From a phage: DNA of 64,000 bases. Each line of letters opens with the position of its first letter. Position 1 is the stretch's first letter. Positions 19,563 through 25,394 of this stretch are shown one piece after another. The stretch lies in the sequence record PV805631.1; one strand, written 5' to 3'. The notes under the pieces are model-generated. The model had not been told where the DNA came from and did no database searches. It was given only the letters and a program-made list of their open reading frames with translations. Both the position numbers and the translations under genes were made by a program.

Positions 19563-20060
19563 ATGAAACAGAGGATTGCCCATGACAGGCTTTTACAGCT
19601 TGTTAGTTATGACCCTATTTCCGGAATTTTTACTCGTAGGAATACCGGAAAGGTATCCGGTTACCTAATGAAGAGTGGTTACGTTCAACTCCGTGTGGAT
19701 AGTGTGTTGTACTATGGGCATATCCTTGCATGGTTCTATGTGCATGGCGTATGGCCTACGGATAGGATTGACCATAAGGACAATATACGCCATCACAACT
19801 GGATAGATAACCTCAGAGAAGCGACCCACAAGCAGAATAACCAGAGTGCTGTTTTATCTAAAACAAACACATCTGGGTTTAAGGGTGTCTCCTTTTCAAA
19901 GAATATGGGTAAGTACAGAGCAACTATTTGGGTTAATAGCAAACCAATTACATTAGGTTACACAGATAACCCAATAGAGGCTGCTGTTCTCTACGATGAA
20001 GCTGCTGTAACTCATTATGGTGAGTTTGCCAAAACCAACAAACAATTAGGACTGTTATGA
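19563..20060 (+). mobile_element. Free-standing HNH homing endonuclease (HNH plus AP2-like)
   Basis: 'DRIDHKDNIRHHNWIDNLREATHKQN' HNH-type motif, then 'SGFKGVSF...GKYRATIWVN...LGYTDNPIEAA' AP2-like. Confidence 0.7.
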
Positions 20061-21037
20061 AACTTACTAACAATCATGATGTTAGTCTTGCACTAGCTGT
20101 TTGGCTTGTTACAGATGATTATGATTACGTAGACAATCCTAAGTACCTGTCTGCTACCACATTGCTTAAGCCCATTAAGCAAATCGTCATGAAGCATCGT
20201 GTAGATTTTAGTGACCAGTCAATTGATGTTATGGATTTCGTATCCACATCAATGGGTACTGGCTTACATGATTCTATCGAGAAAGCCTGGAAGCTAGGCC
20301 ATAAGACTGCATTGAAGAAGCTGGGTTATCCTCAGCGAGTAATTGATGCAGTAGTCATTAACCCAACCAAAGAAGACTTTGCTGCTAACCCTGACCTTAT
20401 CCCAATCTACATTGAACAACGTGGAACCAAGCAGGTTAAGGGATGGACTATTGGTGGTAAATTCGACATCGTAACGGAAGGTCTGTTGCAAGACTTCAAG
20501 TCTACCTCAACCTATTCCTGGGTTGCTGGTTCCCGTGATGATGAACACAAGATGCAAGGCAGCTTGTACCGTTGGATTCACAACGACATCATTACTGAGG
20601 ATGTAATTCGTATTAACTACATCTTCACCGACTTCATGAAACACATGGCTAACAGCAATCCGAACTATCCTGCTAATCGTATTATGCATAAGGATATTCC
20701 GTTACTGTCTGTCGAGAAGACTGAACGTTGGGTGGAAGAGAAGATTCACTTAATCGAAAAGTACTGGGATGCACCTGAAGAGGAAATCCCCGAATGTACT
20801 GACGAGGAGTTGTGGCGAACAGAGCCACAGTTCAAATACTTCTCTGATGCTTCTAAGGTAGATGTACCTGGAGCCAGAAGTACCAAAAACTTTGGCGATA
20901 TGGCATCTGCCCGTATCTTCATGGCTGAAAAAGGTGGCAAGGGTGCTATCAAGGTTGTGGAGGGGCAGGTTAAACGCTGTTTATATTGCCCTGTCGCATC
21001 CATTTGCAAACAAAGAGAGAGATATTTTCCATCATGA
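20057..21037 (+). CDS. PD-(D/E)xK nuclease with C-terminal Cys cluster (Cas4/RecB-like)
   Basis: 'GKFDIVTEG...LQDFKST' nuclease-core-like; Cys at 'PEC' plus C-terminal 'CLYCPVASIC' (C-x2-C-x5-C). Confidence 0.5.
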   Translation: MKLTNNHDVSLALAVWLVTDDYDYVDNPKYLSATTLLKPIKQIVMKHRVDFSDQSIDVMDFVSTSMGTGLHDSIEKAWKLGHKTALKKLGYPQRVIDAVVINPTKEDFAANPDLIPIYIEQRGTKQVKGWTIGGKFDIVTEGLLQDFKSTSTYSWVAGSRDDEHKMQGSLYRWIHNDIITEDVIRINYIFTDFMKHMANSNPNYPANRIMHKDIPLLSVEKTERWVEEKIHLIEKYWDAPEEEIPECTDEELWRTEPQFKYFSDASKVDVPGARSTKNFGDMASARIFMAEKGGKGAIKVVEGQVKRCLYCPVASICKQRERYFPS

Positions 21038-24036: not shown

Positions 24037-24840
24037 ATGTCACTGTTCAGTAACTTGAAAGAAAAGACCAAAAACGTTGAAGCTGTAAAAGACTCCCTTG
24101 GTGGTGGTGGCTTCGGTGCAAAAGAATCCGATATCTACACCGGTACTGTAAAAGTAGCTTATGTAGGTAAAGCTGACTCTGGTGCAGACTGGATGCAGTT
24201 AATCATTGAAAACCTGAAAGGTTCTGACGGCAATGATGCTGGTGAGTTCCGTGCTCAGGTGTACTTTACTTCTGGTAATGCTAAAGGCAATAAGCCAACT
24301 TACGAGAAGAATGGTAAAGAGTACTTCCTGCCTGGTTACACTGTCATTAATGACATGATGCTGATGGCTACTGGTTGTGAACTGCCAGATGCAGACTTCG
24401 AAGAGAAGATTGTTAAAGTCTATGACTTCGATCTGAAAGCTGAAACCAATAAATCTGTCATGGTTCCAGTTGACCTGGTTGGTCAGACTGTTACCTTCGC
24501 TCTGGAAAAGGTTCTGGAAGCTAAGCAGGTTAAAGGTGACAACGGTTACGTTGACTCCGGTGAAACCCGTGAAGTAAACGAGATTCAGAAAGTGTTTCAC
24601 CCGGAACTGCTGGTCACAGTCGTCGAGGCTCAGGAAGCAGAGAAGGCTGAGAAAGAACTGACCCCAGAACTGGCTGTATTCTACGGAGCATGGCTGGAAA
24701 AGAACAAAGGTAAAACCCGTGATAAGACCAAGGGTTCTGCTGGTGGTAATGGTAAAGGTGGCTTGCCTCCTAAACCAGGTGCAGGTGCTGGCACGGGTAC
24801 TACTCCAGCTGGTGGTAAATCTCTGTTCGGTAAGCGTTAA
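24037..24840 (+). CDS. Putative single-stranded DNA-binding protein
   Basis: 267 aa with Gly-rich tail 'GSAGGNGKGGLPPKPGAGAGTGTTPAGG'; call rests on position and composition. Confidence 0.45.
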   Translation: MSLFSNLKEKTKNVEAVKDSLGGGGFGAKESDIYTGTVKVAYVGKADSGADWMQLIIENLKGSDGNDAGEFRAQVYFTSGNAKGNKPTYEKNGKEYFLPGYTVINDMMLMATGCELPDADFEEKIVKVYDFDLKAETNKSVMVPVDLVGQTVTFALEKVLEAKQVKGDNGYVDSGETREVNEIQKVFHPELLVTVVEAQEAEKAEKELTPELAVFYGAWLEKNKGKTRDKTKGSAGGNGKGGLPPKPGAGAGTGTTPAGGKSLFGKR

Positions 24841-25394
24841 TGAAAATCCCAATTGTCGGTGCAGACATTAGCCTCCGCAATTGGGGATTAGCTCGTGGGA
24901 TGCTGGACATTGAGTCCGGCGTCTTCGAGCAGGTCGAACTTAAACTGGTTCAAACTGAAGTTGACCACAACAAACAAGTTCGAACCAACTCCAAAGATAT
25001 ACAAGCTGCCCATGATTTGTTTCTTGGTTGTGAGGAATGGTTACGGTCTGCTAAAGCAGTATTCGTAGAAGTACCAGTAGGCTCTCAGTCTGCTAATGGA
25101 ATGAAGTCCTATGGTGTATGCGTAGGATTAATTGGTGCATTCCGTGCATTGGGTTGTCCAATCTTTGAAGTATCCCCAATTGAAAACAAACTTGCACTGG
25201 TCGGCGATAAAACTGCATCAAAAGACACGATGATTCGTGCTGCTCATGCCATCTATCCTGAAGCCAACTGGCTCACGGATAGTAAAGGTAAACTTCTGAA
25301 TAAGAATGAGCACTTAGCTGATGCAATCGGTGCAATCCACGCTGGTGTAAATCTCCCAGCTTTCCAGAATCTCATTAAATTAATAAAGGCATAA
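24840..25394 (+). CDS. RuvC-like Holliday junction resolvase
   Basis: N-terminal 'KIPIVGADISLRNWGLA' resembles the RuvC first-strand motif. Confidence 0.5.
   Translation: MKIPIVGADISLRNWGLARGMLDIESGVFEQVELKLVQTEVDHNKQVRTNSKDIQAAHDLFLGCEEWLRSAKAVFVEVPVGSQSANGMKSYGVCVGLIGAFRALGCPIFEVSPIENKLALVGDKTASKDTMIRAAHAIYPEANWLTDSKGKLLNKNEHLADAIGAIHAGVNLPAFQNLIKLIKA

Follow-up and report, generated by a model that had tools for sequence, protein, structure and literature searches.

Does a phage nuclease that shares the fold of Cas4 serve the replication and recombination of the phage genome, or does it point to an interplay with CRISPR adaptation in the host? This question is raised by positions 20057-25394 of the 64,000-nucleotide stretch of phage DNA in sequence record PV805631.1 (the whole of which is called the window below), where an earlier note, made from the sequence alone, had proposed a self-contained system for recombination-dependent replication. 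The sequence of this region matches, at 100% identity, the GenBank record of Escherichia phage vB_EcoP_G7C (hereafter G7C), an N4-like podovirus and coliphage of the genus Gamaleyavirus in the family Schitoviridae. The hallmark of this family, the virion RNA polymerase (vRNAP), is present in the window as an open reading frame (ORF) of 3,759 amino acids at 28416-39695 on the minus strand. Five co-directional ORFs on the plus strand, gp42 to gp46, fill the region, and we conclude that it is the gp42-gp46 part of the N4-type replication/recombination block of middle genes. Within this block, gp42 is predicted to act as an exonuclease that prepares DNA ends for recombination, and it carries four invariant cysteines in an arrangement along the sequence that departs from that of Cas4.

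[quoted passage not shown] Records of close relatives add two names, 'Sak4-like ssDNA annealing protein' and 'RuvC-like Holliday junction resolvase'. Public records thus already hold the module, with functional names for four of its five genes, and this is no new kind of system; modules that combine an exonuclease, an annealase, an SSB and a resolvase are textbook phage biology, and their presence here has little discovery value. The earlier calls of a nuclease and of primase-, Sak4-, SSB- and RuvC-like proteins all hold, as judged by PHROG and Pfam matches and by orthology to phage N4. What merits closer attention is the nuclease.

The RecB-fold core and the four cysteines of gp42

The identification of gp42 as a PD-(D/E)xK nuclease is borne out by comparison of an AlphaFold2 (AF2) model (predicted local distance difference test score 86.3) with solved structures. 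The top matches are Cas4 (4ic1), Cas4-Cas1, MGME1, EXO5, Dna2 and AdnAB, and RecE and lambda Exo are also among the matches; as modelled, gp42 has the RecB fold and belongs to the Cas4/AddB/Exo5/Dna2 structural group of nucleases. For this protein, as for gp46, fold comparison is the only link to solved structures. Among PHROG families, gp42 matches phrog_2139 'exonuclease' (E 7.6e-152) and, secondarily, phrog_1706 'CRISPR/Cas system associated' (E 1e-11). RecB motifs I, II and III and the QhxxY motif are all found between residues 67 and 171, and G67, H71, E120, D137, D146, K148, Q167 and Y171 are invariant across the family. The protein also carries an N-terminal extension, and a helical insertion at about residues 80-115 is confined to N4-like members. 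When the family profile was aligned by hhalign to the Cas4 protein SSO0001 (in a sequence that matches 4ic1 chain A at 100% identity), motif I, D137 with D99, D146/K148 with E113/K115, and QhxxY were brought into register at E 0.006 and a probability of 6%; this alignment spans residues 22-176, the N-terminal part and the core, and was used for motif correspondence only.

There are exactly four cysteines in gp42 (C247, C308, C311 and C317) and none before residue 247, and gp42 of N4 has the same four and no others. Together with H71, D137, D146, K148, Q167 and Y171, they are invariant in 23 homologues at 52% identity or above. The cysteine columns are likewise kept in non-truncated cluster representatives of 33-51% identity (150/150 and 148/148), in all 79 members of a distant non-N4 branch from IMG/VR, and in the cultivated non-N4 viruses vir555, Baldr, Pag-Yong1 and LE3 at about 23-35% identity. 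Conservation of this kind is far beyond chance, and the cysteines accordingly withstand the comparison with homologues that the earlier note had named as one way to refute its nuclease call; the other, a lack of structural similarity to PD-(D/E)xK nucleases, is likewise answered by the fold matches above. The spacing C-x2-C-x5-C of the C-terminal triad is invariant in N4-like members, and x3 or x4 takes the place of x2 in the non-N4 branch.

The arrangement of these residues differs from that of the enzymes with which gp42 had been compared. In the characterized 'iron-staple' nucleases, one cysteine precedes RecB motif I and three are C-terminal (PMC4176176, PMC3466216), the ligands being C32 and C188/C191/C197 in SSO0001 and C64 and C200/C203/C209 in Pcal_0546 (PMC4176176, PMC3466216). 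The column of gp42 that aligns with C32 holds Pro39, and is Pro or Ser throughout the family. Neither gp42 nor any of the 79 distant non-N4 members has a conserved cysteine N-terminal to motif I, and this absence can be considered established because it is read from the sequences themselves, independently of the weak SSO0001 alignment. Instead, C247 follows the core, as part of a conserved P-x-C-T-D-E-E-L-W motif, and marks the beginning of an insertion of about 60 residues that is predicted by the AF2 model to form a beta-alpha-beta unit and that precedes the C-terminal triad. Thus the four cysteines and the triad spacing of the proposed Cas4/AddB-type arrangement stand, and its upstream cysteine does not lie where that arrangement would place it.

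On the strength of its absolute conservation, C247 is the predicted fourth ligand of the metal site. If so, the site would be wired unlike that of all characterized iron-staple nucleases, with a ligand supplied by a post-core insertion and a topology seen in none of them. Tentatively, and with somewhat less than even confidence, we suggest that the gp42 family is a distinct clade of recombination exonucleases with a rewired Cas4/AddB-type cluster, in which the N-terminal ligand was lost and a cysteine of the post-core insertion serves instead. Such a cluster would anchor the beta-alpha-beta subdomain, possibly as a docking surface for DNA ends or partner proteins, rather than staple the N- and C-terminal regions together. 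The family comprises all Schitoviridae and at least several hundred cultivated or uncultivated viruses in which the nuclease is paired with Erf or RecT. The literature searched contains no description of gp42 as Cas4-like or as bearing an iron-sulfur (Fe-S) cluster, no demonstration that the Schitoviridae exonuclease is the Cas4-like four-cysteine nuclease that our model suggests, and no report of a cysteine ligand layout that differs, as this one is predicted to, from the canonical iron staple. The relocated ligand is a concrete structural hypothesis that can be tested cheaply.

By analogy with its structural relatives, the four-cysteine site most likely binds an Fe-S cluster. The Fe-S ligands of AddB have the same C-x2-C-x5-C spacing. 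That of the N4-like members is also exactly equal to the Fe-S ligand spacing of Cas4 (PMC4176176), and the best structural matches (SSO0001, Cas4-Cas1, EXO5, Dna2 and AdnAB) are Fe-S enzymes. These observations speak against the rather unlikely alternative that the four cysteines bind structural Zn2+, which would make gp42 a zinc-stabilized RecB-like exonuclease and leave the function of the module otherwise unchanged. This alternative draws on the related DUF3799 nuclease 3L0A, whose four-cysteine site holds Zn in the crystal, although the metal there may be an artefact of over-expression (PMC3466216).

Table 1. Predicted features of the gp42-gp46 segment, with positions in the window.
Feature	Position	Strand	Description
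gp42	20057..21037	+	326-aa RecB-fold (PD-(D/E)xK) nuclease with four-Cys metal site; predicted recombination/end-resection exonuclease
gp42 RecB core motifs	20255..20569	+	I G67..H71..E75; II G134-K-F-D137; III D146-F-K148; Q167-x3-Y171
gp42 predicted metal-cluster module	20795..21007	+	C247, beta-alpha-beta insertion of ~60 aa, then C308-x2-C311-x5-C317
gp43	21034..23187	+	717-aa DNA primase, homologue of N4 'dns'; C-terminal primase/PriCT-1, N-terminal P-loop-like part
gp44	23244..23996	+	250-aa Sak4-like core-only RecA-type ATPase; predicted ATP-dependent single-strand annealing protein
gp45	24037..24840	+	267-aa N4-type single-stranded DNA-binding protein
gp46	24840..25394	+	184-aa RuvC-fold Holliday-junction resolvase (predicted)

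Partners of the nuclease in Schitoviridae and other viruses

Full-length gp42 nucleases occur in 473 phage records, essentially all of them N4-like, from phages whose hosts include Vibrio, Pseudomonas, Rhizobium, Roseobacter and Acinetobacter. The order exonuclease-primase-Sak4-SSB is kept in four Schitoviridae lineages, represented by N4, LUZ7, Vibrio phage phi 1 and Roseovarius phage RPP1, and Sak4 lies two genes downstream of the nuclease in all Schitoviridae examined. The slot after the SSB gene is filled by a gp46-like RuvC protein in N4 and LUZ7 and by a RusA-like resolvase in phi 1 and RPP1, a non-orthologous replacement which indicates that the slot requires a junction resolvase.

Beyond the Schitoviridae, a gp42-type nuclease adjoins an Erf-like annealase in an archaeal virus, and in Planktothrix phage Pag-Yong1 it is two genes away from Erf (the depositor labelled it 'Cas4 family'). 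In Leptospira phage LE3 it is equally two genes away, here from a RecT-like annealase. A scan of IMG/VR yielded at least 577 further relatives. Neighbours were counted within 3 kb at the 79 IMG/VR loci with a called nuclease ORF, and the counts are lower bounds, since many of the contigs are short. The commonest neighbours are Erf annealase, present at 56 of these non-N4 loci, a Toprim-DnaB primase-helicase at 50, RusA resolvase at 48, an SSB with a DDDIPF tail at 42, and a NinB/Orf mediator at 15. Five functions therefore recur; the nuclease stays constant, and unrelated proteins provide the other four. This pattern is that of exonuclease/annealase modules such as lambda Red, RecET and P22 Erf, and so supports a role for gp42 as an end-resection nuclease.

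Two other genes were seen at the non-N4 loci. A second, unrelated small nuclease (PDDEXK_14, E 7e-39) is encoded a few genes downstream in 11/79 (for example L081:7897-8379), and a conserved 137-amino-acid protein ending in '…NDPF', which may be another partner of the SSB-tail type, is present in 28/79.

Within the segment itself, gp42 and gp43 share an ATGA overlap and gp45 and gp46 overlap by 1 nucleotide, as is typical of operons. Identities to the N4 orthologues are 70% for gp42, 81% for gp43, 77% for gp44, 59% for gp45 and 68% for gp46. Searches of NCBIfam and PADLOC gave no relevant matches for any of the five proteins, and sequence searches against PDB chains returned nothing meaningful for gp43, gp44 or gp46.

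The primase gp43 matches phrog_2135 (N4-type DNA primase) over its full length with an E value of 0, and Pfam PriCT_1 at residues 652-706 (E 2.6e-7). Its N-terminal 480 residues give a weak match to DUF3987 (E 0.016) and contain the Walker-A-like sequence ATSGFGKG. We also observed that the C-terminal third aligns to PriCT-1 and to the primase portions found at the N-terminus of other phage primases, and that residues 183-384 align to C-terminal portions of other primase families. From these matches, the domain order of gp43 looks inverted relative to usual primase-helicases.

The assignment of gp44 as a predicted Sak4 annealase is founded on its match to the Sak4-like family phrog_124 (E 7.6e-50), on a Walker A motif (residue 18, GFSASGKS) and a Walker B motif (residue 85, IIIDS), and on the divergent ssb gene directly downstream, an arrangement shared with phage HK620 (PMC5928155). 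It also scores 43.3 bits against AAA_24 (cut-off 27; E 4.9e-11). N4-like phages are among those that have Sak4, an ATP-dependent annealase stimulated by the SSB encoded next to it (PMC5928155).

That neighbouring gene encodes gp45, the positional orthologue of N4 gp45 (N4SSB) at a global identity of 59%; it matches phrog_743 SSB (E 2.4e-88) and no Pfam family. Replication, recombination and late transcription all depend on N4SSB, according to Choi et al. (1995), as cited in PMC4889955 and PMC4496689. The C-terminus of gp45 is a basic, Gly/Pro-rich tail (…GGKSLFGKR), and the acidic/aromatic tail (DDDIPF, NDYPPF) that classical and HK620 SSBs use for their partners is absent (PMC5928155). In N4, the SSB C-terminus is needed to activate host RNA polymerase (PMC4496689). 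Finally, gp46 is RuvC-like although it goes unnamed in the N4 and G7C records: it matches the RuvC-like family phrog_159 (E 1.2e-41), and has an RNase-H-like RuvC fold with a D-E-(H/D)-D catalytic tetrad.

Candidate roles of gp42

These folds, catalytic motifs, conservation patterns, syntenies and gene associations make it probable that gp42-gp46 form an N4-type replication/recombination block in which gp42 resects, gp45 coats, gp44 anneals, gp43 primes and gp46 resolves. Specifically, gp42 would resect double-stranded phage DNA ends in the 5'->3' direction and leave 3' single-stranded tails, as expected if it has the polarity of Cas4, AddB and Exo5, which are 5'->3' nucleases that make such tails (PMC3466216, PMC4176176). 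The tails would be coated by gp45, and gp44 would use ATP to anneal the SSB-coated complementary strands, for example the terminal repeats of different genome copies, thereby building concatemers or priming synthesis. On the joined or invaded molecules, gp43 would prime DNA synthesis for the upstream gp39 polymerase, and gp46 would cut the branched junctions that remain, so that concatemers could be packaged.

The gene set is thus that of a recombination module, as had been proposed, but 'self-contained' is doubtful, and the block depends on an upstream helicase and polymerase. Guinta and colleagues are said to have reported in 1986 that some host enzymes are also needed for N4 replication. 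Overall, the observation in the earlier note is confirmed, and its interpretation is supported in part.

Several points weigh against the role that we propose for the block. The match of gp42 to Pfam PDDEXK_1 (PF12705) reaches 17.3 bits (E 0.0047), below the 22-bit gathering cut-off, and 33 of 80 family members match that profile at E<=0.01, the best at 5.2e-7. Sequence searches of gp42 against the PDB, by phmmer and with an 80-sequence profile, found nothing, and the SSO0001 profile alignment is weak, though every motif lines up. The zinc in 3L0A means that an Fe-S cluster is not assured (PMC3466216), and the tail of gp45 is devoid of the NDYPPF-type motif by which the HK620 SSB recruits Sak4 (PMC5928155). 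In addition, MGME1, Exo5 and Dna2, the closest structural neighbours of gp42, are flap or replication nucleases, and the literature searched holds no biochemistry of gp42, gp44 or gp46 from any N4-like phage.

The structural neighbours just named also favour a different account, in which gp42 acts mainly in replication maturation, removing primers or 5' flaps or processing genome ends in the manner of Dna2, Exo5, MGME1 or the T7 gene 6 exonuclease. This account is kept alive by their close match to gp42 and by an N4-type polymerase that is without 5'-3' exonuclease (PMC2784036). Nevertheless, it seems unlikely to describe the main function, because outside N4 the gp42-type nuclease is mostly linked to an annealase (Erf at the majority of the IMG/VR loci, RecT in LE3) and to junction resolvases, and this linkage is the signature of exonuclease/annealase recombinases. 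The recombination and replication-maturation roles are not mutually exclusive. No paper in the literature searched assigns the 5'->3' exonuclease known classically as N4 'exo' to gp42.

The idea that a Cas4-like nuclease might interact with host CRISPR adaptation finds no support in its profiles and neighbours. No Cas4 model of Pfam, NCBIfam or PADLOC matches gp42, whose only Pfam match is the sub-threshold one to PDDEXK_1 (pfam12705), and 0 of 80 family members match Cas_Cas4. There is no cas1, cas2 or CRISPR array beside the gene in G7C, N4, LUZ7, phi 1, RPP1 or the 79 IMG/VR loci; its neighbours in G7C encode the polymerase, an HNH protein, the primase, Sak4, SSB and RuvC. The type I-E system of E. 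coli is not known to use Cas4. We conclude that gp42 is not a CRISPR Cas4, and that interplay with CRISPR adaptation has no support in these data.

It is accordingly very improbable that gp42 is a phage-borne Cas4 mimic, selected to disrupt or divert CRISPR adaptation in the host, as has been reported for Campylobacter phages: its structural kinship with Cas4, the weaker PHROG match noted above, the depositor's 'Cas4 family' label on one homologue and the membership of the Campylobacter phage protein in the pfam12705 group (PMC5704561, PMC4283603) are outweighed by the lack of Cas4 profile matches, by the finding that pfam12705 Cas4-like proteins are not CRISPR-associated (PMC5704561), and by the fixation of the gene in the replication block of phages on diverse hosts, which a host-specific anti-CRISPR role would hardly explain, and its linkage to annealases elsewhere. 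We therefore rejected defence or counter-defence as the primary function of gp42. The case corrects an over-reading, in that a Cas4-like fold does not equate to a CRISPR-related function.

With recombination as the preferred role, the gp42 family is the predicted self-encoded end-processing nuclease of the Schitoviridae, a family widely used in phage therapy. Moreover, since nucleases of this type pair with three different annealase families, they are candidates for a portable exonuclease in recombineering toolkits.

Flanking genes and relation to known systems

Two genes for homing endonucleases with HNH and AP2 domains, both on the plus strand, flank the module: gp41.1 (19563-20060) and gp47.1 (26077-26574). 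N4 has neither, and its gp41 directly abuts gp42. Several close relatives align to the segment in two pieces, with spans of 5.9-6.1 kb versus 5.3 kb, which suggests further mobile insertions within the block. Immediately downstream, gp47 (25396-25845, plus strand) encodes an acidic, Glu/Pro-rich, low-complexity protein of 149 amino acids with an isoelectric point of 4.3. It is only 34% identical to N4 gp47, compared with 59-81% for the neighbouring genes, and so evolves much faster than the rest of the block.

Farther along, the ORF-poor stretch at about 27213-28414, from gp47.2 to the vRNAP stop codon, is not colinear with NC_015933 34700-36188. About 250 bp of NC_015933 (L001 14363-14616) have no counterpart in the window, and there is a small break near 27213-27277, where identity is 98.4%. 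This non-colinear stretch implies that the window represents either a variant of G7C or another assembly version. No tRNA gene was detected by ARAGORN in the whole window.

The nearest known system is gp42-gp46 of N4 itself (NC_008720), with the same gene order and the same five proteins, whose RefSeq names already include exonuclease, DNA primase, Sak4-like annealing protein and SSB. G7C differs from it by two HNH homing endonuclease genes, of which one is inserted just upstream of gp42 and the other lies downstream of gp47. With the iron-staple nucleases (Cas4 proteins SSO0001, 4IC1, and Pcal_0546, 4R5Q; AddB; Exo5; Dna2), gp42 has in common the RecB fold and motifs, the C-terminal triad and four invariant cysteines, but their first ligand is N-terminal to motif I, whereas gp42 has Pro39 there and C247 after the core. 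The DUF3799 exonuclease EUBREC_2131 (3L0A), with Zn in its crystal, also has the canonical N- and C-terminal cysteine arrangement, unlike gp42 (PMC3466216). The Cas4-like protein of Campylobacter phage, in the pfam12705 group, resembles gp42 as a stand-alone AddB/Cas4-type nuclease unlinked to CRISPR loci (PMC5704561); gp42 differs in falling below the Pfam cut-off, and for N4-like phages an influence on spacer acquisition is neither known nor implied.

At the level of the module, the two-component recombinases (lambda Exo/Red-beta, RecE/RecT and P22 Erf) likewise place an exonuclease gene beside an annealase gene, often with an SSB and a junction resolvase. The N4-like block is distinguished by a nuclease of the cysteine-cluster, Cas4-like branch rather than the lambda Exo/YqaJ branch, and by an ATP-dependent Sak4 in place of Rad52-like annealases. 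HK620 offers the closest parallel for the annealing step (Hutinet et al. 2018, PMC5928155): as in N4-like phages, its sak4, with Walker A and B motifs, adjoins a divergent ssb related to that of N4. The tail of its SSB, which is needed for Sak4 recruitment, differs from that of gp45. To process ends, HK620 hijacks RecBCD via Abc2 (PMC5928155), whereas N4-like phages encode a nuclease of their own, gp42.

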